From assembly GCA_021372725.1 (NCBI GenBank), contig JAJFTV010000119.1, positions 119 to 64,118 on the forward strand: DNA of 64,000 bases. The letters run 5' to 3'. A program made the translations under genes and the position numbers. The notes under the pieces were generated by a model. The model saw nothing but the letters and a program-made list of their open reading frames with translations. It did no database searches and was not told the origin of the DNA. Source of the stretch: Chloroflexota bacterium (GTDB lineage: Bacteria; Chloroflexota; Anaerolineae; Anaerolineales; Anaerolineaceae). Shown here in pieces: positions 8,636 through 51,058 of this stretch; position 1 is the stretch's first letter; each line of letters begins with the position of its first letter.

Positions 8636-9451
8636 ATGTCGAAAAAACGTTTGCTTTTCCCTGTGATCTTTGTGCTTTCCATTGCTCTGTTTGGACTGGC
8701 TGCGCCAGCCTTGGCAGCACCCCTTTCGCAGCAGATTTCCTCGCCCACACCGGACGCTGACGGGCGGATCACTTACCTTGTTCAGAAAGGTGATACCTGT
8801 CTGAGCATCGCCTTGCGTTACCTGAATGGGGATATCAATCAGATTATCGAACTCAACGGTCTCACAGCGGATTGCGTCATCACTGAAGGCCAGAATATTC
8901 TGTTGGGCATTCAGGAAATCCCCACCTCCACCCGGGGACCCTCACCCACCGCCACCTCCTTCATTCCTTCCGCCACACCCACCCCTGGAACCGGAGCCAT
9001 CTGTGTGATGCTCTTCAACGACATTAATGGAAACGGTCTCAAAGACAGCGAGGAATTCCCCATGCCGGGTGGCGCGATCAGCATTACCGATCGTGAAGGG
9101 ATCATCTCCCTGACCGGTGTATCGGTAATCGACGCCGACCCCGGAACCTCTGATGAGTATGAACCGTTATGCTTCGAGGATTTGCCGGAAGGCGAATACA
9201 ACATCAGCATGGGGCCTCCCGAAGGATACAACGCGACCACCATTATGAATTTCCCCCTTGAACTCACTGCCGGTGACCAGAGCATCCTGGACTTTGGCGC
9301 CCAGACCAGCTCTGCCGGAGCGCTGATTGCCGAACAAACATCCCCCACCGATTTGAGCACCCGCCGTTCACCTTTGCTGGCTATCCTGGGTGGCATCATG
9401 CTGCTGATCGGGGTGGGGATTGCGGTCTATTTGTGGATTCAACGCCGCTGA
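8636..9451 (+). CDS. LysM domain membrane-anchored protein
   Basis: Signal peptide MSKKRLLFPVIFVLSIALFGLAAPALA. LysM motif YLVQKGDTCLSIALRY..LNGL. Pro/Thr linker and C-terminal TM. TGTTATAAT (8615-8623) sits 12 nt before ATG 8636, so the track start 8546 is unlikely. Confidence 0.75.
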   Translation: MSKKRLLFPVIFVLSIALFGLAAPALAAPLSQQISSPTPDADGRITYLVQKGDTCLSIALRYLNGDINQIIELNGLTADCVITEGQNILLGIQEIPTSTRGPSPTATSFIPSATPTPGTGAICVMLFNDINGNGLKDSEEFPMPGGAISITDREGIISLTGVSVIDADPGTSDEYEPLCFEDLPEGEYNISMGPPEGYNATTIMNFPLELTAGDQSILDFGAQTSSAGALIAEQTSPTDLSTRRSPLLAILGGIMLLIGVGIAVYLWIQRR

Positions 9452-9503
9452 AATTTGCGTCATCCCATCCCCTGTGAAACATCAACAGGTTATCCACAAC
9501 AAT

Positions 9504-9872
9504 ATGAAGCTCTTTCTCCTGGGGTTTATCCTGATCTTCTTTTGCGGTTGTTCACCCACCCAAAGCAAACTCCAAACGCCAACTCCCCCAGTTATCTCCA
9601 CCCCGCCTGTGTCTTCTTCCAATGCCAGGCCGACGACCAATACAGCCGCCAGCACGGCGTCCCCTTCGCCTGTTCCAGTTGTGCAAATCTGCTCTCCTCA
9701 CATCCATGCGGTTGCAGTAGGTGATGCCGAGCTCTCCTATGCGGCTTATCTGCAGATCCATGGCAGTTATGGGTATCTGGCCGGAATGGACGGACTTCCT
9801 CTGGAAGAAGGTTCAGACCCCGCGATCGACCCGCATGGCGGTCCTGTGATCTGCAACTGGATGGAGGAGTGA
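9504..9872 (+). CDS. putative lipoprotein (hypothetical)
   Basis: The internal Met gives MKLFLLGFILIFFCGCS (lipobox-like), followed by a Pro/Ser/Thr-rich linker. Confidence 0.45.
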   Translation: MKLFLLGFILIFFCGCSPTQSKLQTPTPPVISTPPVSSSNARPTTNTAASTASPSPVPVVQICSPHIHAVAVGDAELSYAAYLQIHGSYGYLAGMDGLPLEEGSDPAIDPHGGPVICNWMEE

Positions 9873-9914
9873 GAACACTTTAAACCCATCACCCTCCGCC
9901 TGATATTATCAAAA

Positions 9915-9973
9915 CTCTCACAATTCACGTGACTTCAGAGAATTAACTCTCCGTATTTGCGTGAATTTGGAGA
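9915..9973 (+). repeat. hairpin repeat, copy 1 (degenerate left arm)
   Basis: 9937-9973 (AGAGAATTAACTCTCCGTATTTGCGTGAATTTGGAGA) matches 11327-11363 with 2 mismatches in 37 nt. The left arm 9915-9936 is a decayed complement. Confidence 0.75.
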
Positions 9974-10006
9974 ACGTTTTTCGCAAGATTATGCTATACT
10001 CAATGT

Positions 10007-11143
10007 ATGTATACAATCCCACGTTTGATCAGGCCGCAAATTATTCACCGATTACAAACAACTTCAAAAGCCGTTATCATCTATGGCCCACGACAGGTGG
10101 GCAAAACCACCCTGGTCATGAATCTTCTGAAAGAAATATCAAATAATCCTTTGATCGTTACGGCTGATGAAAAAAAATATATCGACGTTTTTTCCAGTAA
10201 AGACCTAAGTATCATTAAATCCTTGGTATCAGGATATGATACGATTTTTCTTGATGAAGCTCAGCGTATTCCTGATATCGACATTGCGATAAAGTTGATA
10301 ATTGATCAAATGCCAGGTTTAAAGGTTATCGTTACAGGTTCATCCTCGTTAGATTTAGCCAATCAGGTTTCTGAACCGCTTACGGGACGTGCCTGGTTTT
10401 ATAATCTATATCCGATATCCATCTCCGAGCTGAGACAAATAAAAAATGATTTTGAGATAAACGACCAATTGGAAGACAGATTAATTTATGGTTCGTATCC
10501 AGAGTTATGGGCTTACGAATCTAACCGTGATAAACAGAAATACCTGCAAACAATTCGGTCAGCATATTTATATAAAGATATCTTAAACCTGGCTGATATT
10601 AAGCATACGGCCAAACTCGAAGACTTGTTGAAATTATTGGCTTTTCAAATTGGTAGCGAAGTTTCGTTGAATGAATTGGCAACTTCACTTCAGATTAGTA
10701 AGGAAACCGTTGATCGTTATATTAACTTGCTTGAAAAATCATTTATTGTTTTCCGCCGAAAAGGTTTTAGTCGAAACTTGCGAAAAGAAGTAACAAAAAT
10801 GGACAAAATTTATTTTTATGATTTAGGAATTCGCAATGTGCTGATAGACAATTTGAAATCAATTCAAAATCGTGATGATTTAGGAAAATTATGGGAAAAT
10901 TTCCTGATGGTTGAGCGAAAAAAACACATGGATTACACCGACAAACTTTATAGCGCCTACTTTTGGAGGACCTATACAGGAGCAGAAATTGATTACGTGG
11001 AAGAACAGGATGGGATATTGTCGGGATTTGAATTTAAGTATCAAAGCAAGGGGAAAAAAGCGCCTGCCACCTTTTTAACAACCTATGCCAACAGCCAATT
11101 TTTTGAAATTTCCAAAGATAATTACTTGCAATTTATTGCATGA
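10007..11143 (+). CDS. AAA-family ATPase with DUF4143-type C-terminal domain (COG1373-like)
   Basis: Walker A GPRQVGKTT, Walker B IFLDEAQ, length and C-terminal pattern. The coding region is markedly A+T-rich: hand counts of two 60-nt lines give 30-33% GC. Confidence 0.75.
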   Translation: MYTIPRLIRPQIIHRLQTTSKAVIIYGPRQVGKTTLVMNLLKEISNNPLIVTADEKKYIDVFSSKDLSIIKSLVSGYDTIFLDEAQRIPDIDIAIKLIIDQMPGLKVIVTGSSSLDLANQVSEPLTGRAWFYNLYPISISELRQIKNDFEINDQLEDRLIYGSYPELWAYESNRDKQKYLQTIRSAYLYKDILNLADIKHTAKLEDLLKLLAFQIGSEVSLNELATSLQISKETVDRYINLLEKSFIVFRRKGFSRNLRKEVTKMDKIYFYDLGIRNVLIDNLKSIQNRDDLGKLWENFLMVERKKHMDYTDKLYSAYFWRTYTGAEIDYVEEQDGILSGFEFKYQSKGKKAPATFLTTYANSQFFEISKDNYLQFIA

Positions 11144-11305
11144 ATCGAAATGTTGTATCGGTTCATTTAGATGATGAAGGCCCGTTCATTAAAAACTGAT
11201 CGTTGAAACTTATTCCTCGATTGGCAAATTTTTCCCATTCAATTCCCCGCAGGCCAAGGTAACGAGGAGAAGTAGCGCCAATCTTGAAGCCTGCCATTAA
11301 TTCAC

Positions 11306-11363
11306 TCTCCAAATTCACGCAAATATAGAGATTTAACTCTCCATATTTGCGTGAATTTGGAGA
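11306..11363 (+). repeat. hairpin repeat, copy 2 (perfect 21-bp stem, 16-nt loop)
   Basis: TCTCCAAATTCACGCAAATAT (11306-11326) is the exact reverse complement of ATATTTGCGTGAATTTGGAGA (11343-11363). Confidence 0.8.
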
Positions 11364-11514
11364 GACAATTTATGAATGGGTTGAACAGGAAAAAATGTTG
11401 CCTTCCAAAATACATGGCTCAGCCGACACCCTCTGTACCAGGCGATGGATACCAGAAGGAGGATGAATCAGGATTGACCCGCTCATTTTTTTGAGTATAA
11501 TAAGAGTCCGGAAC

Positions 11515-11587
11515 GGCTCACTAGCTCAACTGGCAGAGCAATTGACTCTTAATCAATCGGTTCAGGGTTCGAGTCCCTGGTGAGTCA
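11515..11587 (+). tRNA. tRNA-Lys (anticodon CTT)
   Basis: Manual cloverleaf: acceptor GGCTCAC/GTGAGTC, D arm GCTC-AACTGGCA-GAGC, anticodon arm ATTGA-CTCTTAA-TCAAT, T arm CAGGG-TTCGAGT-CCCTG, discriminator A. No encoded CCA. TATAAT about 15 nt upstream. Confidence 0.9.
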
Positions 11588-11635
11588 CAGTACAAACGGT
11601 GTGTGGCGGGAACGCCGCCCCCATGCGCAATTATA

Positions 11636-11675
11636 GAGAAGAGCCCACCGAATGGCAGGCTCTTCTCCTGTTTAT
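11636..11675 (+). terminator. stem-loop downstream of tRNA-Lys (possible terminator)
   Basis: 10-bp perfect stem GAGAAGAGCC/GGCTCTTCTC (11636-11645 / 11658-11667) followed by CTGTTTATT. Confidence 0.45.
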
Positions 11676-11826
11676 TCCCCCTGAAAATTTGCCAGGGGTA
11701 TTTCATAAACCTGTTCCCGGCTGGATGAGCCAGTAATTCATCATGAATTAAGAATCACCATCCTTTTTCCCCGCCTTAAAGGATGGGAAAACAGGCACAA
11801 ACCCTGACATCCCCTTTCTCAGTCTG

Positions 11827-12540
11827 TTATTTCGCCCCCAGATACACCTTCTGCATCATCTCGTTTTGCAGCAGGTTCTGCGAGGTATCCTGCAAGACGA
11901 TTTCACCGCTCTGGATCACATACCCGCGGCTGGCCACCGAGAGCGCCTTGAGAGCGTTTTGTTCAACCAGCAGGATGGTCATGTTTTCCTTGTTGATGGT
12001 CAGGATGAGTTCAAAAACTTCATCCACCAAAATCGGCGCCAGCCCCATCGATGGTTCATCCATCAGCAGCAGCCTGGGGCGCGCCATCAATGCCCTGGCC
12101 ATGGCCAGCATTTGCTGCTCACCACCGGATAATGTTCCGGCCAGTTGCCTCCGGCGGTCCTTCAGGCGTGGAAACAACACAAATTGTTGCTCCATGTCTG
12201 CCAGGATTTCTGCTTTTCCGTGCCGGGTATAGGCGCCCATTTCCAGGTTTTCCTGTACTGTCAGGCGGGCGAATACCCCCCGTCCTTCCGGCACCATGGT
12301 GACGCCCAATTGGGTCACCTTATGGGGTGGTATGTTCTGAATATCTTTGCCGTTGAAACTCACCCGCCCCTTTTGGATTTTGTTCAAACCGCAGATGCTG
12401 CGTAATGCAGTTGTCTTGCCGGCACCGTTTGACCCGATCAACGAAACGATCTCGCCCTGTTCCACGTTCAGCGAAATGCCCTTCAGCGCATGAATATTTC
12501 CATAATAAGTATGCAGATTCTCCACTTCAAGAAGCGGCAT
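11827..12540 (-). CDS. livF: branched-chain amino acid ABC transporter ATP-binding protein LivF-type
   Basis: Walker A GSNGAGKTT, LSGGEQQ signature, LLMDEPS. The likely start is MPLLEVENL (12540), overlapping the livG stop. Confidence 0.85.
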   Translation of the reverse strand: MPLLEVENLHTYYGNIHALKGISLNVEQGEIVSLIGSNGAGKTTALRSICGLNKIQKGRVSFNGKDIQNIPPHKVTQLGVTMVPEGRGVFARLTVQENLEMGAYTRHGKAEILADMEQQFVLFPRLKDRRRQLAGTLSGGEQQMLAMARALMARPRLLLMDEPSMGLAPILVDEVFELILTINKENMTILLVEQNALKALSVASRGYVIQSGEIVLQDTSQNLLQNEMMQKVYLGAK

Positions 12541-26826: not shown

Positions 26827-26869
26827 TGATCATTCCTTATATTTTCCTTCGTTCAAATCCGTTTTATTA

Positions 26870-26967
26870 AAATCCACAGCATTTTGCGAAGTTATCCACA
26901 GTTTTGCACATATATCAACCTGTTTTCCACAAGTTTTTCCAAAATTTGTGGATTCTTTTGTGGATTC
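26870..26967. promoter_or_regulatory. DnaA-box cluster 1
   Basis: Perfect TTATCCACA at 26892-26900. TTTTCCACA at 26923-26931. AAATCCACA at 26870-26878. TGTGGATTC at 26947-26955 and 26959-26967. Confidence 0.65.
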
Positions 26968-27249
26968 CATAACGTTTCACCCTGTCTTACCAACCAGAAT
27001 TCTGTCATGTTGTTGACCTCGGTGGATTTTCGATGATTGTACACTTACAGGTATCCTGGACACCACAGGTTTTCCAAATCAATGCCACCCACACGGCCGA
27101 TTCTCAAATGTGACATTCAGAGATGAAATAAGTGACATTTTATAATTCTGTAAAGTTGACAAGGTTACTCTGATTGTGTTATTCTTTTGCTGATATGGAG
27201 TGCAAATCTGTTTACCCTCCAGGATCAATTTTCATAAGGAGAACTTATA

Positions 27250-27426
27250 ATGACATATAAAGTCAACCGCGACGAATGCATCTTATGCGGAGCTTGTGAA
27301 CCCGAATGCCCTGAGCAAGCTATTTCCGAAGTAGATGGTGCGATGTGGATTAATCCCGAACTTTGCAAAGACCACGCTCTTTGCGTTGAAGTTTGCCCGG
27401 TCGAAGCAATTTCCAAGGCTGAGTAA
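27250..27426 (+). CDS. 4Fe-4S ferredoxin (58 aa)
   Basis: Not in the track because it is under 60 aa. MTYKVNRDECILCGACEPECP...CKDHALCVEVCP. AAGGAG 9 nt upstream. Confidence 0.85.
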   Translation: MTYKVNRDECILCGACEPECPEQAISEVDGAMWINPELCKDHALCVEVCPVEAISKAE

Positions 27427-27450
27427 GACAATTCATTTCCAGTCCAGATT

Positions 27451-27489
27451 CCCCTTCAAATGTTACAATTTGAAGGGGTTTTGTGGTTT
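27451..27489 (+). terminator. intrinsic terminator after the ferredoxin gene
   Basis: CCCCTTCAAAT/ATTTGAAGGGG 11-bp stem followed by TTTTGTGGTTT. Confidence 0.8.
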
Positions 27490-27506
27490 AAGAACAGGAG
27501 CCATTT

Positions 27507-28163
27507 ATGAAAAAATTCATCACGGTGGCAGGAAATATTGGCGTTGGCAAATCAACCCTGGTTGAACTGCTGAGCGAGGCATTGGATTGGGTACCTTTTT
27601 ACGAACCGGTAGCCGAAAATCCTTATCTGGTCGATTTTTATGAGAATATGAATGACTGGAGCTTTCACTCACAGATATTCTTCCTCATCCACCGTCTACG
27701 CATTCATCACGAGTTAGCAATGTGCCCAAATTCGGCCATTCAAGATCGCAGTATTTACGAGGATGCCGAAGTCTTTGCCAAGAATTTATACCTTCAGGGA
27801 TATTTTCAGGAACGGGATTACGCCACTTATACCTCCCTGTATCAGACCTTGTGCAAATCCTTAATTGCACCTGACCTGGTTGTGTATTTGCGTGCAACCA
27901 CGCCAACACTGATTACGCGAATAACCAAACGCAGCCGTGATTATGAAAAATCGATCAGCCCTGATTACCTGGATCAAATCAACCATCTCTATGATGAATG
28001 GATCGACGGGTTCACGCTCTGCCCAAAGCTCACCATTCCGGCCGATAATCTTGATTATGTTTCCCAGCCCAGCCACCTAAATCTCATTCTGCGCAAGATA
28101 CAGGAAAGATTATCCGGCAAGGAAGAAGTCGTTTTCGAGCCAGGTGAAATCGAAGCCCTTTAG
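27507..28163 (+). CDS. deoxynucleoside kinase
   Basis: P-loop GNIGVGKST, DRSIYED motif, length and pattern of the dAK/dGK family. Confidence 0.85.
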   Translation: MKKFITVAGNIGVGKSTLVELLSEALDWVPFYEPVAENPYLVDFYENMNDWSFHSQIFFLIHRLRIHHELAMCPNSAIQDRSIYEDAEVFAKNLYLQGYFQERDYATYTSLYQTLCKSLIAPDLVVYLRATTPTLITRITKRSRDYEKSISPDYLDQINHLYDEWIDGFTLCPKLTIPADNLDYVSQPSHLNLILRKIQERLSGKEEVVFEPGEIEAL

Positions 28164-28222
28164 AAAAAGTGACTGATCCCAAAGAAACACATTAAGAATT
28201 TTTTGAGAAAGCCAATATTATG

Positions 28223-28256
28223 AAAATAGGCCAACCCCTTTGGGCCAGCCTATTTT
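28223..28256. terminator. bidirectional terminator between the convergent dNK and spoVS genes
   Basis: AAAATAGGC....GCCTATTTT arms with a CCC/GGG inner stem. A/T runs on both sides. Confidence 0.6.
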
Positions 28257-28278
28257 TAATCCACTGGTGAAATGTTTG

Positions 28279-28569
28279 TTATTTCGGATCAATCACCAGT
28301 TTGATTGCCGTACGAACTTTCCCATCGATCTCTACATCGACAAATTCTGGTACTGCTACAATATATACCCCTTCCTCCTTTAAGTATCCTGTAGCGAGAA
28401 CCATTGCCTTTACAGCTTGATTGACGGCTCCAGCCCCGATAGCCTGAACTTCAGCATGTTTATGTTCACGAATGACCCCAGCAATCGCCCCCGCTACGGC
28501 TGCAGTGCGGGAGTTTGCTTTCACTTTTATGATGTCCACCTTTGCCTCCCTCGACATAAATTCTGACAT
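28279..28569 (-). CDS. spoVS: SpoVS-family protein
   Basis: KVKANSRTAAVAGAIAGVIRE..EVQAIGAGAVNQAVKA...TAIKLVI is near-canonical SpoVS. The start could be Met5 at 28557. Confidence 0.9.
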   Translation of the reverse strand: MSEFMSREAKVDIIKVKANSRTAAVAGAIAGVIREHKHAEVQAIGAGAVNQAVKAMVLATGYLKEEGVYIVAVPEFVDVEIDGKVRTAIKLVIDPK

Positions 28570-28628
28570 TTTGGGGTTGTTTACAATGTGTTTATCATTT
28601 TAATGGATTTGAAAGTCAATTGCAATAC

Positions 28629-28993
28629 CTTTCCACATTATAAATCCAATAATGATTATAGTAACAGTAGTAGAGACTGTGGATATGTGGATAAAAGCAG
28701 TTTGTGGCGATGAATCCGGTATATATAACTGTTTAACTCAATTATCCCCCATATCTAGCGATTTTATCCTTCCAGGTTTTCCAGATGAAATAGGGGGATT
28801 CTTGTGGAAAAAAATCGGTAAAAAACAGCCTTTTAATTACTTTGTGAGAGAATCTTCTATGTGTCCACACTCATAATTCACCCCCTATATAGAGGAGGTG
28901 AAATTACCGTAATTTCAGGTGAATCACACTCAATTTATACCATTTCTCCACAGTTCGATGGGGTTTTCCACAAATATAAGCGGTTTATCCACA
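28629..28993. promoter_or_regulatory. DnaA-box cluster 2 with tandem boxes, TAG-trios and an AT-rich stretch (candidate oriC unwinding module)
   Basis: TGTGGATAT at 28678-28686 and TGTGGATAA at 28686-28694. TGTGGAAAA at 28803-28811. TTCTCCACA at 28944-28952. TTTTCCACA at 28964-28972. Perfect TTATCCACA at 28985-28993. TAG TAA CAG TAG TAG at 28659-28673. Confidence 0.65.
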
Positions 28994-29006
28994 GATTTAA
29001 GCCCAT

Positions 29007-30020
29007 CTACTCCTGGACAATGCCCATATCTTTTGACCAGGCATCAAGCGTTTCATCGATACTATCAAGATATTCATCCAGCCGCTGGATGCGGTCATCC
29101 ATCTGATCCGGGCTCATCCCCATCGTTTCGACCACCGCAGACCATTTATCCTGGATCATCAGGTTATCCGTTGAAACAGATGCTGCCAGGGTCCAGGTTT
29201 TGATGACCGGCCATAATGCAGCGAAGGGATGTTCTTCATTTAGAGCCAGGGTGGCATTTTTATAATAGGACAGGCGATTGATGTCCAATTTGATGGGAGC
29301 TTTTTCAGATTTTGAGGCAGCGATGAATGCTTCCTCCCAGTTTTCCAGCCAGGCAGCGGGTACCCCGGAGAAACCATCCGGGGGCATCAGCAGGTCAATG
29401 AATGCATCGGCCAGCCCAGGATTGCCAATCGCTTCGGCCCTGCCGGGGTACTGCAGCAGGAACCGGCGTTCGGTCATAGGCCTGTTGGTTAATGATGCGA
29501 CGGCATTGGCAGCTTTTTCCATAGCCTTCAGGAATTGATATACTTTTTCAGTGTGGTGTTGGGCAGTACGGTTTTTCAGATCAAACCATAACTGGCGGGA
29601 TGAGGTATAAAAATTACGTGCCCTGTACAGTGTATATTCCGGCCGGCCGTATTGGGCGCAGATACTGGACTGGGTGAATTCGAACCAGTGCTGGGTATCG
29701 TGCAAAATAATGGGATTATTACAGATAAATGGGGACAGCCATGGATCAGAACGCTGTTCCCGCGGCTGGCGAAAATCACTTTGCGCAAAATGGGCAATAT
29801 CCAGGTGAATTTCATCCGAGAGCCTGATAATTTCTCGCGGATGTTCCGGTGTGTTGTCATGGATGAAAAAAAGATCGATATCTGTGGTATGTCCAAGCAA
29901 GGGTTCATCGGTCAGCAGTGACCCGGTCAAGTAAATGCATACCATGCGCCGGTTTTGTCTCAGTTGTTGATCAGCAGCCGTTCGAGCTGCTTGCAGCAAT
30001 GAATCACGAGTTATGCGCAT
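29007..30020 (-). CDS. nucleotidyltransferase-fold (pol-beta superfamily) protein, function unknown
   Basis: GSLLTDEPLLGHTTDIDLFFIHD fits the hG[GS]-x(9-13)-DhD NTase motif. The C-terminal domain is helical. Confidence 0.45.
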   Translation of the reverse strand: MRITRDSLLQAARTAADQQLRQNRRMVCIYLTGSLLTDEPLLGHTTDIDLFFIHDNTPEHPREIIRLSDEIHLDIAHFAQSDFRQPREQRSDPWLSPFICNNPIILHDTQHWFEFTQSSICAQYGRPEYTLYRARNFYTSSRQLWFDLKNRTAQHHTEKVYQFLKAMEKAANAVASLTNRPMTERRFLLQYPGRAEAIGNPGLADAFIDLLMPPDGFSGVPAAWLENWEEAFIAASKSEKAPIKLDINRLSYYKNATLALNEEHPFAALWPVIKTWTLAASVSTDNLMIQDKWSAVVETMGMSPDQMDDRIQRLDEYLDSIDETLDAWSKDMGIVQE

Positions 30021-30080
30021 TTCTCCCCTTCCAAAGAAAAAATGTGGACAAACTGAACATCTAAATACCTGACCATTTTA

Positions 30081-30728
30081 CTACGAAGGTTCATTTGTAT
30101 TGGGTAGTTCCGGCTGAAAAGGTGCCAACTGCAATGCCTGGCGGATACGTGTCTCAATCCAGATCAGGTCTTCTTCATGGCGGACAAAATCCCGCGTGTT
30201 GGTGTCAATCACCAATGTGGGGGAGGGATGTTTTTCATGCAGAAAGTAAGTGTCATACGCTTCGTTGAGCGATTGGATATAATCCCGTTCCATGCTGCGT
30301 TCATAAGAGCGATCGCGCTGTGCAATGCGCTGCATGAGAACATCGGTATCAGCTCGCAGATATACGATGAGGGTGGGGAGAATCGTTTTCTCGGCCAGCG
30401 CTTCCTGCACACGATAGTACATCTCCAGTTCATCACCTTTCAGGTTGATTCTGGCAAACAGGGCGTCTTTTTCAAACGTATAATCGCTGATCAGGGTTTT
30501 ATTTTCTTGCAGCAGTCTTGAGACGCCATGCCGCTGTTGCTGATATCGACTGAGAAGGAAGAAGATTTGTGTTTGAAATGCATATCGTGCACGGTCGGAG
30601 TAAAAATCACCCAGAAAAGGATTTTCCTCAAATACCTCCAACAGTAAACTGGCCTGAAAGGATGGCTGAAGCATCCGTGCCAGGGTGGTCTTGCCGACGC
30701 CAATCACACCTTCGACCGCAAAATACAT
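30081..30728 (-). CDS. deoxynucleoside kinase (second paralog)
   Basis: P-loop GVIGVGKTT. ISDYTFEKD occupies the ERS-motif position. Arg-rich lid QRDRSYE. Confidence 0.8.
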   Translation of the reverse strand: MYFAVEGVIGVGKTTLARMLQPSFQASLLLEVFEENPFLGDFYSDRARYAFQTQIFFLLSRYQQQRHGVSRLLQENKTLISDYTFEKDALFARINLKGDELEMYYRVQEALAEKTILPTLIVYLRADTDVLMQRIAQRDRSYERSMERDYIQSLNEAYDTYFLHEKHPSPTLVIDTNTRDFVRHEEDLIWIETRIRQALQLAPFQPELPNTNEPS

Positions 30729-34257: not shown

Positions 34258-34286
34258 TTGACAAGACTTCTTCCATCGGTTATCCT
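34258..34286 (+). promoter_or_regulatory. promoter of the SRP RNA gene (TTGACA-17-TATCCT)
   Basis: -35 at 34258-34263 and -10 at 34281-34286. This places the TSS about 34292, at the base of the SRP helix. Confidence 0.55.
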
Positions 34287-34290
34287 TAGC

Positions 34291-34403
34291 CCTGCGTCCG
34301 GGTGGGACCGGCGCGGCGGAACCCTGCGAACCCCGTCAGATCCGAGAGGAAGCAGCGGTAAGAAGGTATTTCCGGGCGCCGCCGGCAAACCTACCCGGCG
34401 CAT
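34291..34403 (+). ncRNA. ffs: signal recognition particle RNA, short (4.5S-type) form
   Basis: GUCAGAUCC-GAGA-GGAAGCAGC matches conserved SRP domain IV (E. coli GUCAGGUCC-GGAA-GGAAGCAGC) with a GNRA tetraloop. The long closing helix is TGCG.CCGGGTGGG...CCTACCCGG.CGCA, followed by TTTGT. Confidence 0.8.
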
Positions 34404-34407
34404 TTGT

Positions 34408-35316
34408 ATGAAGATGACTACTCCACCTATTTGCAATTACGAAGACTCCGATTACCAGGATACTTTCTGGGAAGCCGGCGGTCGTGACTATGAAGATGCT
34501 GTGGAAGCGGTTGCCATAAACCGGCTGATGCCTCGATCCGGCAGCCGCCTGCTCGAACTGGGCGCAGGCGCCGGACGCAATTCTTCCCGTTATCGCGGTT
34601 TTCAACAGGTGACATTGCTCGATTACTCACATAGCCAGTTGGAACGCGCTCGTGACCGCCTGCGCTGCACCCAGGACCCCGGGAATGAATACCGTTTTGT
34701 GGCTGCCGACATCTACCGACTGCCGTTTGCTCCAGGTGTATTTGATGCCGCGACCATGATCCGTACACTGCATCACCTCAGCGAACCGGTCAGCGCCCTT
34801 CTGCAGGTTCGGCGTGTACTTCAACCGGAAGCTGTTTTCATCCTCGAATATGCCAACAAGCACAATCTGAAATCGATTTTGCGCTATCTGTTCCGCCTCC
34901 AGAAATGGAGCCCCTTCACCCGCGAACCGGTTGAGTTTGTGAAATTGAATTACGATTTTCATCCGGCGGCAGTTCGGTCGTGGCTGGATGAAGCGGGCTT
35001 TGTACTGGAGCGACAGCTTACGGTTTCTCATTTCCGAATTGGATTGTTCAAAAAAGTGCTGCCCCTTAAATTGCTGGTTTGGATGGATTCAACTGCCCAG
35101 CTAACCGGTGATTGGTGGCAGATGTCACCCAGCGTATTTACCCGCAGCCATACCACACAAGACGGTGCCCCTGCTGCGAAAGTTGCCTTTTTTGCCTGCC
35201 CGGCTTGTGGTGAACCGCTGGCGGATACCCCGCCCCTGATTATATGTCCGGCTTGCGGGAAGCAGTACCCGGTGGAAGACTGTATTTATGATTTCCGATT
35301 GACGCAGAATTCTTGA
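34408..35316 (+). CDS. class I SAM-dependent methyltransferase with C-terminal zinc ribbon
   Basis: LLELGAGAGRN motif I. C-terminal CPACGEPL...CPACGKQYPVEDCIYDF (Trm112-like). The first 50 codons of the track ORF overlap the ffs promoter and RNA. Confidence 0.75.
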   Translation: MKMTTPPICNYEDSDYQDTFWEAGGRDYEDAVEAVAINRLMPRSGSRLLELGAGAGRNSSRYRGFQQVTLLDYSHSQLERARDRLRCTQDPGNEYRFVAADIYRLPFAPGVFDAATMIRTLHHLSEPVSALLQVRRVLQPEAVFILEYANKHNLKSILRYLFRLQKWSPFTREPVEFVKLNYDFHPAAVRSWLDEAGFVLERQLTVSHFRIGLFKKVLPLKLLVWMDSTAQLTGDWWQMSPSVFTRSHTTQDGAPAAKVAFFACPACGEPLADTPPLIICPACGKQYPVEDCIYDFRLTQNS

Positions 35317-46842: not shown

Positions 46843-48486
46843 TTAACCTGACACTTCTGCGATATTCCATCCAAATTGAAAACGATAAAATTCAACAATA
46901 GGTTGGCTGCTGGTCGAAAAAATGTTGATGATTCTTCCTAAATCAATATTTACAGCATTACACTCGCTCTTTGATTCCCAGACGGTTTTATTTCCGAAGG
47001 ATTTAGAAAGAGTGATCTTTTCAAGTAACCTGGTCGATTCGTTTTCATAAATGCCCAAACGAACTGATATGGGTGGAGGGTTTGATACGATATTTGAAAC
47101 GATCCAGGGTTCATCGGTGATAGTTGTTGTTCCAAGATCTTCTTTACTTGTAAATGGTTCTATTTCCAGATCTTGCCTTCCCCAAAATAAATCCAGGTGT
47201 TGTTCGATCTCCCCTATATATTCATGATTAGCAGGATAATTAATCAATATCCTCTGGTTTCTATCGGCGTTTGTGGCAATAAATGCCACCATATTTGCAT
47301 TTTCCTTATCAACTATGAGCTGGGTTTTTGCATTTGCCAGAGCATGTAATGGTGAAATGATCCAGATCAACACAAATAATATTAATAACCAACGATAATA
47401 TGATAAGTTTTGCAATAACCAGCCGATCATTATTCCTGAGAAAAACGCCGCTCCAAGGGAGAAAGGAAGCAAGTAATACACAGAGGTATACATCCACGGA
47501 AGATAGATCACAAGCCATAGCCCCATCCAGAGAAGGGCACAAGTTAGTGGAAATTGAAATGGCGTCTGTTTACCAACCTTTGTCAGAATAATCCATACAA
47601 TTACAATAAAAAGAAGAAAAAAATAATCATGCAGAAGAAAGGTGGACCAACGCATTGTTGTAGATATTATTGTGGGTAGATTAATGGCATAGCTTTGAAC
47701 ATAACTTCCTGAGCCGATCCCTGTTGTGACAAGGATGGATCTTAATAAGAAAAAAGAGAAACCTCCAAAAAGGATTAATCCAAGGGTTTTTAGATAAAAT
47801 TCGGGTTTTTTAATGAGATATATCAAAATGGCAAATGGCAGAAGTGCCAAACCTGTTTCTTTTGTTGCACAAATGGAAAAGGTAAGAAAAACTACACAAA
47901 AATCTGTAATGATTGTTTTGCAGCGTTTTTCCTTCGCATCAGGTAGCGAAAGAAGTTTCTTATATTGAAACAGTACCAGGTATACCAGGGTGATAAGGAA
48001 AAATGTTTGCAGTAATTCCGGCTTTGAGAGGGTATAAGCATTTTCCACCAAAATTGTTGAACCGAGAAAGAAGATACCACTTAATCCGGCCTGAATTTTG
48101 CTGCCCCCGACCAATCGGACTGTCAGGATTAATCCAAGCACAATAAGGATCAATAGAATCAGATTTCCCAGGAAGAACCAAAATGGTTGAGAGCCAGCAA
48201 CCAGAAATATTAGAAAATGATATAGCCAATAAATGGGACGAAACCGTCCAACAGAGTTTTCCAAAAGAAGCGACCAGTTACCTGAATAGATGCCCTTTAT
48301 CGTGGAAATCGTAACTCCATCATCCAGCAATCCAAATTGAGGGGAGGCCAGGCGTGGAAGCATGATCAAAATACACAATAATACGGGGATTACAAAATGC
48401 AAGTTGCCAGAAATTATCGTCAATATTGTCTCAAATTTCTTATTGGGTATCGATGCTCTTCTGGTTGCCAACTGCTTCATGCGCAT
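46843..48486 (-). CDS. GT-C fold glycosyltransferase (ArnT/PMT-like), low-GC gene
   Basis: GLLDDGV in the first loop, GRFRPIYW, and more than 10 TM helices. Sampled 60-nt lines give 23-37% GC, against about 55-60% in the neighbours. Confidence 0.55.
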   Translation of the reverse strand: MRMKQLATRRASIPNKKFETILTIISGNLHFVIPVLLCILIMLPRLASPQFGLLDDGVTISTIKGIYSGNWSLLLENSVGRFRPIYWLYHFLIFLVAGSQPFWFFLGNLILLILIVLGLILTVRLVGGSKIQAGLSGIFFLGSTILVENAYTLSKPELLQTFFLITLVYLVLFQYKKLLSLPDAKEKRCKTIITDFCVVFLTFSICATKETGLALLPFAILIYLIKKPEFYLKTLGLILFGGFSFFLLRSILVTTGIGSGSYVQSYAINLPTIISTTMRWSTFLLHDYFFLLFIVIVWIILTKVGKQTPFQFPLTCALLWMGLWLVIYLPWMYTSVYYLLPFSLGAAFFSGIMIGWLLQNLSYYRWLLILFVLIWIISPLHALANAKTQLIVDKENANMVAFIATNADRNQRILINYPANHEYIGEIEQHLDLFWGRQDLEIEPFTSKEDLGTTTITDEPWIVSNIVSNPPPISVRLGIYENESTRLLEKITLSKSFGNKTVWESKSECNAVNIDLGRIINIFSTSSQPIVEFYRFQFGWNIAEVSG

Positions 48487-48518
48487 CTTTCCTTGCCAAA
48501 GATTAGGAAATTTTAAGA

Positions 48519-49871
48519 TTAATGATTTTGAGAATTTCGCTGTTCTTCGTATGCCCTTACTGCCAGCCCGGCAGTGACACTGCTGAATGTATTGGTGTTG
48601 ATCACCCGTTCTTTGCCGAATATACGCTCGAGCATCTGTGAGAAATAAGGGATGTTCGATGAACCGCCGGTCTTGATGGCCGCATCGATATCAACTGCAT
48701 CCAGGCCGGATCGTTCGATGGTTTGCATCAGACAGTCATGGATTTTGTCGGCCGGTTCCTCGATATCCTGGTCAAATCGCCAGCGGGTCAGCAGTTCCCA
48801 AATGTGGATATCGTTCTCTTCCATTCGAAACAGGCTTGCGCTTTCACTGGAAAGCCGGATTTTGGCTGCCTCCACCTTATTATAGAATGAAAACGCCAGG
48901 TCATTATAGATGATGGATTCCAGGGCCTTCAATCTGGCAGGCACATCGCAGGTTTTCATCGTGCGCTGCAGCATGGTACGTACCGGGGGGGTACTTAACT
49001 CTGGCAGGACTTCCCACTCTGAAAGAGCGTCGATCAAACTTTCAATGCGCGGGTCGTCCGGAAAATGACCTTTACCGAAGTGTTCCAGCATTTGCTTCTG
49101 GATGATAATGTGATCGAAGTCGCTGCCCGCAATGCCAATACCGCCGGTGGCGTATACCAGGCGGTTGCCGGGATCGCCCAGGCGCATAATGGTAATATCC
49201 AGCGTTCCGCCGCCAAAATCAAAGATCAACACATTTTGGGGTTTCTCGATGGTGGTCTCATAATACAGGGCGGCTGCGATTGGCTCATATTCAAAGGATA
49301 CCTCCTCAAAACCGGCTTGAAGGGCAGCCCGTTTGAGGGTTTCCTGTGATTGCTGATCCAAAATCGGGTCATCGAAGAAGTGAACCGGCCTGCCCAACGT
49401 GACACCGGTTATTTTCTCTCCCAGGATCGCCTCCGATCGGGCTTTCAGTTCTACCAGATAGATGCCGATGATCTGTTCCAGGCTGTAAAACCGGTCAAAA
49501 ACACGGGTTCCCTTGTATCCTTTTGAACGCAAACCGGTCTTGATGTATTGCAGCAAACGACCCGGGGTTAATTCGTCCACTTCCATGTAGAGGTCGCGGA
49601 CATAAAACAATTCGCCGCCCACAAAGTCGGATTCCCCGATCCATTTTTTGACAAACCGGCGCGGCCGGTCGATGTTGTCGCGGTAATAGATGTTGATGGC
49701 TTCCTGGCCGATATAATGCTTGTATTCTCTGGTGATGTACAAGACTGTTTTGATCACACCGGGAGCCGGGCTGTCCTTATCGAGCGGCAAAATATTCAAC
49801 TGCCTGCCATCAAATACCGCTACACCTGAATTCGATGTACCGAAATCAAGCCCTACATGAAGCCCTTTCAT
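48519..49871 (-). CDS. Hsp70-family ATPase without a substrate-binding domain (YegD-like)
   Basis: Actin-fold phosphate and adenosine motifs GLDFGTSNSGVAV, IFDFGGGTLDITI and TGGSSNIPYF. 450 aa, so only the NBD plus a short tail. Confidence 0.8.
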   Translation of the reverse strand: MKGLHVGLDFGTSNSGVAVFDGRQLNILPLDKDSPAPGVIKTVLYITREYKHYIGQEAINIYYRDNIDRPRRFVKKWIGESDFVGGELFYVRDLYMEVDELTPGRLLQYIKTGLRSKGYKGTRVFDRFYSLEQIIGIYLVELKARSEAILGEKITGVTLGRPVHFFDDPILDQQSQETLKRAALQAGFEEVSFEYEPIAAALYYETTIEKPQNVLIFDFGGGTLDITIMRLGDPGNRLVYATGGIGIAGSDFDHIIIQKQMLEHFGKGHFPDDPRIESLIDALSEWEVLPELSTPPVRTMLQRTMKTCDVPARLKALESIIYNDLAFSFYNKVEAAKIRLSSESASLFRMEENDIHIWELLTRWRFDQDIEEPADKIHDCLMQTIERSGLDAVDIDAAIKTGGSSNIPYFSQMLERIFGKERVINTNTFSSVTAGLAVRAYEEQRNSQNH

Positions 49872-51058
49872 TCAATATTTCCGTTATCTGCCTGTTTCTC
49901 CGGCTGCCAGATGGTGAAGGCCAGAATATTCAATGCTTCAGTTTTCGATGAGGAAGCCTTGCCTTTTCTGTTTTCGCTGGTATCTTCGACCCGGCCGATC
50001 AGAATTTTTCCGGTCGTGGTCAGGCGGAAATGCCAGCTCCCTGGGTCAGCCGCCGCAGCACCGAGGACATCCACTCCGCCCGCTTTGGCGCCGGCCAGCA
50101 ACAGCCGGCGCTTGCTCCCGTCTGCTCCGGCGGGATCCATCCACGGGTTCTTTTGAACGTACACCCCGCCGGTCTGGTCTGCGATGACCAGTTGCTGGTG
50201 GGGTTGAATGGTGAATGCTCCGACCAGGTAATCCTGCATGTCGAGTTTCTGGATCTCATACAGCGTGATCGCAAGTTTGCCGGCCAGCCTGGCACTGACA
50301 AACCCGCGGCGGGTGACCAGCACATACACATCGTTCTGGTTGCAGGGCGTCAGCGTAAATAAACTGTCGGCGGCGGTGCGAATGCCCTTGCCGATATTTC
50401 GTTCGCTCAAGAATGATTGAAAATAATCCTGAGAGATGTAGCGCGCATACCCCTTTCGACTGATCTGAAGGCAGCCGTCCATCATGGGAATTTCAGTGAT
50501 CGGAATGACGGCAATCAGCCGTTCTCCGCTGCGCAGATCGATTTGAAGTGCCCCGCTCCATTCCAGTTGATCCATAGGGGTATGGGTGAGATCACCGGCC
50601 TTTTGGGTTTGAATACGTCCGGAATCGAACAAAAACAGCAGTTCATCTGAAGCGTTTGCCGTCAGGAGGTGAATATCATCCAGGCGGGGGGCTTCAAACC
50701 CGGCGATCGTGCCCAGGGTATGCCCGGAAACCAGAGCGGGAGGGGTAAACTCTGCAACCAGCATCTTTCCGAATGCGTCATAAATCAGCAGGCTGGGTTG
50801 TTCCATGGGAACCGGCGACGTCCCTCCCGCCACCTGCCGTTTCAGCAGCTCGATCTGATACTCCAGCTCTGCAATTTTACGCTCATACTCCTGAATCTTC
50901 TTGCCGGATTGCAGATTCAGATTTTCGACTCTCAATTCCTCGTTGACTTTGTCCAGTTCGATCACCCGCGCGGAGAGGGTCCGCACAATAAAAGGTGCAG
51001 CCAGGGGTCGCTGCTCAATTTCTTCAATCCACTCCTGGATTTTGCCTGGTTTGATCAT
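49868..51058 (-). CDS. coiled-coil protein with about 6 repeated beta-rich segments (possible GyrA-CTD-like beta-pinwheel)
   Basis: The N-terminal heptad region is KIQEYERKIAELEYQIELLKRQ. Recurring motifs include LLFLFDSGRIQTQ, CLQISRKGYARYIS, VYVLVTRRGFVSARL and FRLTTTGKILIGRV. 4-nt overlap with the Hsp70-like gene. Confidence 0.4.
   Translation of the reverse strand: MIKPGKIQEWIEEIEQRPLAAPFIVRTLSARVIELDKVNEELRVENLNLQSGKKIQEYERKIAELEYQIELLKRQVAGGTSPVPMEQPSLLIYDAFGKMLVAEFTPPALVSGHTLGTIAGFEAPRLDDIHLLTANASDELLFLFDSGRIQTQKAGDLTHTPMDQLEWSGALQIDLRSGERLIAVIPITEIPMMDGCLQISRKGYARYISQDYFQSFLSERNIGKGIRTAADSLFTLTPCNQNDVYVLVTRRGFVSARLAGKLAITLYEIQKLDMQDYLVGAFTIQPHQQLVIADQTGGVYVQKNPWMDPAGADGSKRRLLLAGAKAGGVDVLGAAAADPGSWHFRLTTTGKILIGRVEDTSENRKGKASSSKTEALNILAFTIWQPEKQADNGNIE

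Follow-up and report, generated by a model that had tools for sequence, protein, structure and literature searches.

Every bacterial chromosome has a replication origin (oriC), so finding one is unsurprising in itself, and the adjacency of oriC to dnaA and dnaN is frequent, not obligatory. Among the described systems, the basal unwinding system (BUS) was defined in Bacillus subtilis, where it comprises DnaA-boxes #6/#7 and DnaA-trios, and it has been predicted in 85% of 2070 species (PMC8287927; PMC6669920). In the definition of PMC8287927, one or two DnaA boxes (the better one with at most two mismatches) are followed by a spacer of at most 16 bp, usually 10-13 bp from the better box and including a GC-rich gap averaging 4 bp, and then by at least three DnaA-trios of the form 3'-NAN-5' (central A), with GAT commonest beside the box. 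The Escherichia coli oriC combines a DNA-unwinding element (DUE) with two opposed box arrays and lies between gidA and mioC, ~42 kb from dnaA (PMC10325909 and general knowledge), while bipartite origins are known from B. subtilis (incA/B-dnaA-incC) and Helicobacter pylori (oriC1-dnaA-oriC2) (PMC3479198). Here we compare these systems with a locus in a 64,000-nucleotide stretch (“the window”) of contig JAJFTV010000119.1, from an uncultured Anaerolineaceae (Chloroflexi) bacterium. The entire intergenic gap at 28570-29006, between spoVS and a gene for a 337-residue nucleotidyltransferase-like protein (both on the minus strand), is highly likely to be the chromosomal oriC, and it does not adjoin dnaA or dnaN. 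By its predicted elements it is a standard DnaA-dependent oriC with a BUS, in a lineage (class Anaerolineae) without an experimentally characterized origin. What the sequence and its comparison with relatives show is a set of elements in a given order and spacing, the conservation of this set, and an associated skew switch.

The predicted unwinding module lies toward the spoVS end of the gap. On the minus strand, tandem boxes at 28678-28694 consist of a perfect TTATCCACA (28694-28686) and a ATATCCACA (28686-28678) that share one base (written without the shared base, TTATCCACA-TATCCACA, 28694-28678). They are followed by a 4-nt spacer (28674-28677), which reads GTCT on the minus strand and GCCC, GGCC, or GACT in relatives, and by five DnaA-trios (28659-28673) with the plus-strand sequence 5'-TAG TAA CAG TAG TAG-3'. 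Read from the boxes, these trios are 3'-GAT GAT GAC AAT GAT-5' (minus strand CTA CTA CTG TTA CTA, 28673-28659), and the plus strand is the predicted single-strand track for a DnaA-ATP filament. Next comes the AT-rich core of the predicted DUE, TTATAAATCCAATAATGATTA (28638-28658; 21 nt, 81% A+T), so placed that 28638-28673 is 78% A+T. A weak DUE-distal box, CTTTCCACA (28629-28637, plus strand, two mismatches), faces the boxes of the module across this core.

All the parts of the BUS definition are present in the module: a perfect and a one-mismatch box, a spacer of 12 nt when measured from the perfect box and of 4 nt from the second box, and five contiguous trios with a middle A, three of which, including the one nearest the box, are GAT. 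A scan of both strands of the whole window for perfect or one-mismatch boxes that are followed, after a spacer no longer than 16 nt, by five or more NAN trios returned the module at 28659-28694 as the only site. In addition, none of 100 random Markov-2 sequences contained a site with at least three GAT trios. As in described BUS sites, the better box of the tandem stands upstream, a 4-nt spacer leads to GAT-type trios on the strand 5'-TGTGGATAA-3', AT-rich DNA follows, and the 12-nt distance from the better box falls inside the modal 10-13. The overlapping 9+8-nt tandem has exactly the form of the Geobacter sulfurreducens and Deinococcus maricopensis entries, AATAGGGGT-ATAGGTGT-CGGG-GAT... (PMC8287927 supplementary table). 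Two differences stand out. Unlike the B. subtilis BUS, the module does not lie between dnaA and dnaN and is instead flanked by spoVS and by a deoxynucleoside kinase (dNK)/nucleotidyltransferase operon; and, unlike in the BUS definition, the conserved trio block of the relatives, CTA CTA nnA CTA CGA, holds non-NAN trios.

The remaining boxes form arrays that recall E. coli oriC. Read from the 337-residue protein gene toward spoVS (minus strand), the gap begins with a co-oriented plus-strand triplet at 28944-28993, made up of TTCTCCACA (28944), TTTTCCACA (28964), and TTATCCACA (28985) at 20/21-nt spacing, which presumably forms one arm of a DnaA-oligomerization region. A weak box, GTGTCCACA (28861-28869, plus strand, two mismatches), follows, and then a middle box, TTTTCCACA (28803-28811, minus strand, one mismatch), that is oriented like the boxes of the unwinding module. 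As in E. coli oriC, the locus is unlinked from dnaA, the predicted DUE lies at one end, the arrays are opposed, and each extreme carries a high-affinity box. Unlike in E. coli oriC, the boxes are about two helical turns (20-21 nt) apart and do not follow an 11-nt phasing, no integration host factor (IHF), Fis, or GATC features were identified, and the DNA between the arrays carries a GC-clamped palindrome at a constant position. By the scan criteria given above, neither strand carries a second unwinding module beside the triplet boxes or beside the box cluster in another gap to the left.

That left gap and the right one (28570-29006) had both been singled out in a sequence-only reading of the window as non-coding and rich in DnaA boxes. 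Both are indeed non-coding, being bounded by the PMT_2 glycosyltransferase gene (3' end 26826) and fdx (27250) on the left and by spoVS (28569) and the 337-residue protein gene (29007) on the right. Likewise, every box coordinate and mismatch class in that reading was recovered from the sequence: perfect TTATCCACA boxes at 26892-26900 (plus), 28985-28993 (plus), and 28686-28694 (minus), one-mismatch boxes at 26923, 28678, 28803, 28944, and 28964, and two-mismatch boxes at 26870, 26947, 26959, 28629, and 28861. The co-orientation of the boxes at 28944, 28964, and 28985 at 20-21-nt spacing also proved correct. Two more perfect boxes are isolated (9490 and 20090, the latter within an Opp binding-protein gene), and the 64-kb window as a whole contains 33 boxes with at most one mismatch versus 15.0 +/- 3.75 expected. 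The further claim that no other intergenic region in the 64 kb is comparable agrees with our ranking by box count, in which the two gaps are the top 437-nt windows and the right gap comes first. An Rfam search of the gaps returned no RNA family match.

To quantify the enrichment, we compared each gap with 5000 dinucleotide-preserving shuffles. The right gap holds six boxes with at most one mismatch versus a mean of 0.24, a count that no shuffle equaled (0/5000), and the right cluster is overwhelmingly non-random. The left gap holds two such boxes versus 0.23, a count equaled in 113 of 5000 shuffles; with up to two mismatches, it holds eight versus 2.3, equaled in 14 of 5000. The left cluster is thus only moderately non-random (p ~0.003-0.02), and of the two dense clusters that the sequence-only reading had put forward together as the origin, the density test upholds the right one and leaves the left one moderately enriched. 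The oriC core is the right gap alone, without the left cluster.

To determine how far this organization extends, we examined 80 loci from different Anaerolineaceae species, retrieved by alignment of the 337-residue protein family (39-69% protein identity), whose homologues carry names such as Anaerolineaceae, Bellilinea, and similar. The widespread gene order is dNK2, the 337-residue protein gene, the gap, spoVS, dNK1, and fdx. Among the 72 loci with enough sequence, 60 contain at least three boxes within 600 nt past the 337-residue protein gene, in 4 others the cluster has shifted by 1.9-3.9 kb, and the remaining 8 lack it. Box density in the homologous gap is 9.3/kb versus 0.33/kb across the other 1.23 Mb, and the boxes are conserved base for base across dozens of species.

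The arrangement of the boxes is conserved as well. In most relatives, the triplet, with identical spacing (21/20 nt) and orientation, lies directly past the stop codon of the 337-residue protein gene, an opposite-orientation middle box follows ~140-200 nt past the triplet, and the tandem pair is found 289-303 nt from the first triplet box. The family consensus of the tandem is TTATCCACATATCCACA, and that of the module is TTATCCACATATCCACA-gccc-CTA CTA nnA CTA CGA, followed by AT-rich DNA (in the short form of the pattern, TTATCCACATATCCMCA-N4-CTAC). The stretch from the trios to the distal box averages 73% A+T in the relatives, and 26 of 60 relatives, versus 8.5% of background windows, have a distal box with at most two mismatches ~36 nt away from the start of the trios. 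Origins are predicted at NZ_LGHJ01000025.1:7614-7964 in Bellilinea caldifistulae and, in closed genomes, at ~2,614,540-2,614,890 of OY969938.1, ~1,327,180-1,327,530 of OY969772.1, ~677,400-677,720 of NZ_DF967972.1 (Longilinea arvoryzae), and ~1,874,400 of CAWAGA010000002.1. The very probable oriC at this locus is of an ordinary type, notable only for its dnaA-unlinked position and for its family-wide conservation at the same site.

Replication polarity provides a separate line of evidence. The sequence-only reading had proposed a cumulative skew analysis of the complete replicon as a check; within the 64 kb, the cumulative G-C minimum falls at 29151, coincident with the right cluster, with mean skews of -0.041 on its left and +0.017 on its right. 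In the relatives, we computed the outer-flank skew after leaving out the shared core genes; of 41 loci, 34 show an increase from one side of the cluster to the other (means -0.028 and +0.019; binomial p = 2.5e-5). As a control, none of the six loci without a cluster next to the 337-residue protein gene shows a negative-to-positive switch (0/6). Since the gene-strand bias is not significant (0.53, p = 0.46), the skew switch is not a coding-strand artifact. As a possible sign of an origin in its own right, the gene-strand bias was uninformative, in keeping with the weak strand bias of Chloroflexi (PMC4070872).

The absence of dnaA and dnaN from the window, also part of the sequence-only reading, was confirmed: Pfam found no DnaA or DnaN domain in any sizeable open reading frame (ORF) of the window, the extent that the Pfam search covered, and tblastn (E <= 0.01, with DnaA and DnaN queries) found neither gene there. 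In 14 of the 80 related loci (L006, L014, L016, L017, L019, L020, L026, L031, L035, L045, L049, L055, L072, and L076), dnaN occurs no more than 10 kb from the cluster, at 2.4-8 kb on either side, and in 13 of these it points away from the cluster. Since dnaN is near the origin without dnaA beside it in 14 species, the two genes appear to be unlinked in Anaerolineaceae. Altogether, the proposal of an oriC unlinked from dnaA and dnaN is supported by four independent lines: the unwinding module, the family conservation, the skew switch, and the proximity of dnaN in 14 relatives.

By analogy with the B. subtilis and E. coli paradigm, we infer DnaA binding, the unwinding site, and firing as follows (PMC8287927; PMC6669920; PMC10325909; and general knowledge). 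DnaA would first occupy the high-affinity boxes at 28985-28993 and 28686-28694. DnaA-ATP would then fill the weaker co-oriented boxes, giving two opposed arrays, one on the triplet (28944-28993) and one on the middle box (28803) together with the tandem (28678-28694). The tandem pair would steer a DnaA-ATP filament over the 4-nt spacer onto the plus-strand trios at 28659-28673, and the resulting strand stretching would melt the adjoining AT-rich DNA, from 28638-28658 onward to spoVS. The replicative helicase would be loaded there, and forks would depart bidirectionally. We speculate that transcription of spoVS away from the origin may help the opening.

Several observations weigh against the assignment of oriC to this gap. 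First, dnaA is absent from all 80 related loci as well as from the window (tblastn with a B. subtilis DnaA query). Second, the trio block of the relatives often breaks the rule of three contiguous NAN trios, with at least three in register in 26 of 60, because the CGA trio and the variable third trio intervene. Third, the skew minimum is a broad plateau (~22-36 kb) that is sharp only at 29151. Fourth, the window is one 64.8-kb contig of a metagenome-assembled genome (MAG); the skew and the search for dnaA cover this contig and the related loci rather than a whole replicon, a rival cluster beside dnaA could exist elsewhere in the genome, and the oriC call itself draws on sequence and comparison. 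Finally, a DoriC-based table (PMC8287927) puts the module candidate of Anaerolinea thermophila UNI-1, a member of the same family (entry ORI94030346), at genome position 460-420. This module is weak, having one two-mismatch box, a 16-nt spacer, and no GAT run, unlike the family consensus described here, and it may or may not coincide with the locus described here; UNI-1 is not among the listed matches to the A. thermolimosa and Thermanaerothrix homologues of the 337-residue protein. The UNI-1 entry is the sole published assignment in the family that we traced, and our literature search found no description of an Anaerolineae origin and no link between spoVS and oriC.

The left cluster (26868-26967) lies ~1.7 kb from the core, with fdx, dNK1, and spoVS in between. 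It comprises the plus-strand boxes AAATCCACA (26870), TTATCCACA (26892), TTTTGCACA (26902), TTTTCCACA (26923), and TTTTCCAAA (26935) and two minus-strand TGTGGATTC boxes (26947 and 26959), and neither strand of 26868-26967 carries a BUS-type site. A homologous cluster was found only in L001 and L065, the closest relatives of the window, where two or three boxes point one way and the next three point the other way. In these two relatives, a histidine-phosphatase gene and a PMT_2 gene converge on it with their 3' ends, a terminator-like hairpin lies beside it, and this convergent setting indicates that the cluster is not an operator. In L001 and L065, the phosphatase gene is intact (~190 codons, MTELWLVRHGETIWNQEGRLQG...) and separates the box cluster from the fdx promoter region. 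In the window, the body of this gene is deleted, which places the left cluster beside the fdx upstream region; a remnant of the 5' end (MTEFWLVRQGETLWN..., 26960-27008, minus strand) is fused to the cluster and consists of the first codons only, with the catalytic RHG changed to RQG. Since the cluster has been kept despite the loss of the phosphatase gene, it has been maintained.

The left cluster is best read as a lineage-specific accessory DnaA-box cluster close to oriC, which most likely titrates DnaA or hands it over near the origin. It resembles the DnaA-box clusters of B. subtilis and datA of E. coli (PMC3245932) in being near oriC but outside the core, in having no unwinding element, and in not being an operator. 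It differs from them in having fewer strong boxes (one perfect and one with one mismatch) and in that no IHF-type site was recognized. Elsewhere in the family, 7 of the ~62 relatives that have the main cluster possess a second one at a distance of up to 10 kb, at non-homologous places. Three of the loci carry, ~5.7 kb from the origin core, an array of 16-17 TTATCCACA boxes, mostly perfect, that share one orientation and recur every ~21 nt (L027:16691-17212, L029:16670-17229, and L048:8803-9377). These arrays are flanked by an arsR/P-type ATPase pair on one side and by a GT2 glycosyltransferase gene on the other. Each looks like a large DnaA-titrating array. We also considered these arrays as alternative origins and ruled this out, as they contain no GAT trios.

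The palindrome between the opposed arrays is a further conserved feature. In the family, the GC-clamped sequence ACCCCCATATATGGGGGT stands at a fixed offset of ~+97 nt from the first box, where it is found with at most two mismatches in 45 of 63 sequences versus 8 of 3000 background windows, and a second, weaker copy stands ~30 nt before the tandem boxes. The window carries a degenerate copy, CACCCCCTATATAGAGGA (28879-28896, three mismatches), and a second, weaker palindrome-like element, CGCTAGATATGGGGG on the minus strand (28745-28762), which is less conserved than the first site. We know of no origin factor whose site matches the palindrome, which could be bound by an accessory origin protein or could form a cruciform. 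We therefore raise, as a tentative possibility, that Anaerolineaceae origins have lineage-specific control modules without a described counterpart, namely, the palindrome (acting through an unknown regulator or a cruciform) and the secondary arrays, which would have evolved more than once near the origin (the left cluster in one lineage and the 16-17-box arrays of L027, L029, and L048) and would work together with the core, either forming a bipartite origin without dnaA or serving for DnaA titration.

The stricter proposal that the left and right clusters are two halves of a bipartite origin, bridged by DnaA with fdx, dNK1, and spoVS looped out, seems unlikely. It is favored by the distance of ~1.7 kb, which is like that in known bipartite origins (PMC3479198), and by the retention of the left cluster in L001 and L065 and in the window, where the gene between it and fdx was lost, which suggests selection. 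The convergent 3' ends around the cluster in L001 and L065 are, moreover, not the setting of a promoter element. In addition, one-mismatch boxes make up three of three triplet boxes in L001 and L065 and two of three in the window, and extra boxes might compensate. As in bipartite origins, there are two clusters with genes between them and a predicted DUE in one only. These points are outweighed by the modest enrichment of the left cluster, which has neither trios nor DUE, and by the comparison with relatives: unlike in the described bipartite origins, the intervening genes do not include dnaA, and the left cluster is limited to the closest relatives. Because second clusters are rare in the family and their positions non-homologous, the family origin is monopartite. 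Consequently, the Bacillus-like bipartite layout suggested by the sequence-only reading was not established, the left cluster having no unwinding module and being conserved only in L001 and L065.

It is much less probable still that the right cluster is a DnaA-controlled promoter (of spoVS, of the dNK-nucleotidyltransferase operon, or of both) or a datA-like titrating or inactivating site, with the true oriC elsewhere, for example, beside dnaA. The AT-rich spoVS leader (28570-28628, minus strand), which overlaps or abuts the predicted unwinding region, does contain promoter-like hexamers, and those of spoVS overlap boxes and trios; the minus-strand sites (28683->28655 and 28625->28597) are consensus matches whose number is not above shuffled expectation. 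In B. subtilis, box clusters are sites where DnaA works as a transcription factor (PMC4447404; PMC3245932), the surroundings of dnaA lie outside the inspected DNA, and the DoriC-derived A. thermophila entry lies at genome position 420-460. Against this, the cluster is retained in ~25 loci without an adjacent spoVS, although spoVS is the neighbor in most relatives, and in Bellilinea caldifistulae (L010) two convergent genes enclose it with their 3' ends, so that it is not merely a promoter. Boxes of a DnaA-regulated promoter would always stand at the 5' end of the regulated gene, which is not the case here. Neither an operator nor a titration site would be expected to have GAT trios and an AT-rich tract as parts of a full unwinding module, the skew switch falls at the cluster both in the window and in 34 of 41 relatives and is missing where the cluster is absent, and the A. 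thermophila entry is weak, with its single two-mismatch box and maximal 16-nt spacer. Finally, a chance resemblance of AT-rich intergenic DNA to DnaA boxes, for which one could cite the composition of the gaps (35-37% GC, which raises the TTATCCACA-like background) and the modest p-values of the left cluster, has a negligible probability and is refuted for the right cluster by a count never reached in 5000 composition-matched shuffles and by the base-for-base conservation of the boxes in dozens of species.

With the right gap read as oriC, the locus offers a precise, family-wide origin model, with exact box, trio, and DUE coordinates for DnaA-binding and unwinding assays on cultured relatives, for example, Bellilinea caldifistulae. 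It also provides a sequence anchor for growth-rate estimates from peak-to-trough ratios and for orienting Anaerolineaceae MAG contigs, and it adds a Chloroflexi case of a tandem-box/trio module in a dnaA-unlinked origin. Novelty, if any, lies in the palindrome and the lineage-specific extra arrays, which raise small questions about origin regulation.

The genes around the origin are unusual as origin neighbors and carry no mechanistic implication. The SpoVS gene (28279-28569, minus strand; Pfam SpoVS, 1.4e-32) reads away from the origin and serves as a flanking marker outside it. The marker on the other side, the 337-residue protein gene (29007-30020, minus strand; no Pfam match), has its 3' end at the origin and forms an operon (29007-30728), ending there, with the deoxynucleoside-kinase paralogue dNK2 (30081-30728, minus strand). 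Beyond spoVS lie dNK1 (27507-28163, plus strand) and the 58-residue ferredoxin gene fdx (27250-27426, plus strand), so that the origin is flanked by two deoxynucleoside-kinase paralogues. In 79 of the 80 loci, the 337-residue protein gene comes after the dNK2 paralogue (the 80th has too little upstream sequence), and in most it adjoins the origin. Its family has no Pfam or PDB sequence match, the PDB search with the window's own protein having returned nothing meaningful, and its invariant G33-S34 and D47-x-D49 fit a Pol-beta-type nucleotidyltransferase signature. The window also carries chromosomal housekeeping genes (lexA, recN, pcrA, NAD kinase, NAD synthase, lgt, RNase J, and the signal recognition particle [SRP] RNA).

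Elsewhere in the window, the bacterial small SRP RNA (34300-34399, plus strand; 55.5 bits) lies inside a called methyltransferase ORF (34258-35316), and the start of the methyltransferase gene must therefore be further downstream. A low-GC patch (~0.41) at 46843-51058 (minus strand) contains three co-directional genes, encoding proteins of 547 and 396 residues without a Pfam match and an HSP70/MreB-like ATPase (450 residues), and may be an acquired island. Another low-GC patch (0.41-0.45), at 9000-12000, carries an AAA_14/DUF4143 ATPase gene (10007-11143) by tRNA-Lys(CTT) (11515-11588) and may be an integration hotspot.

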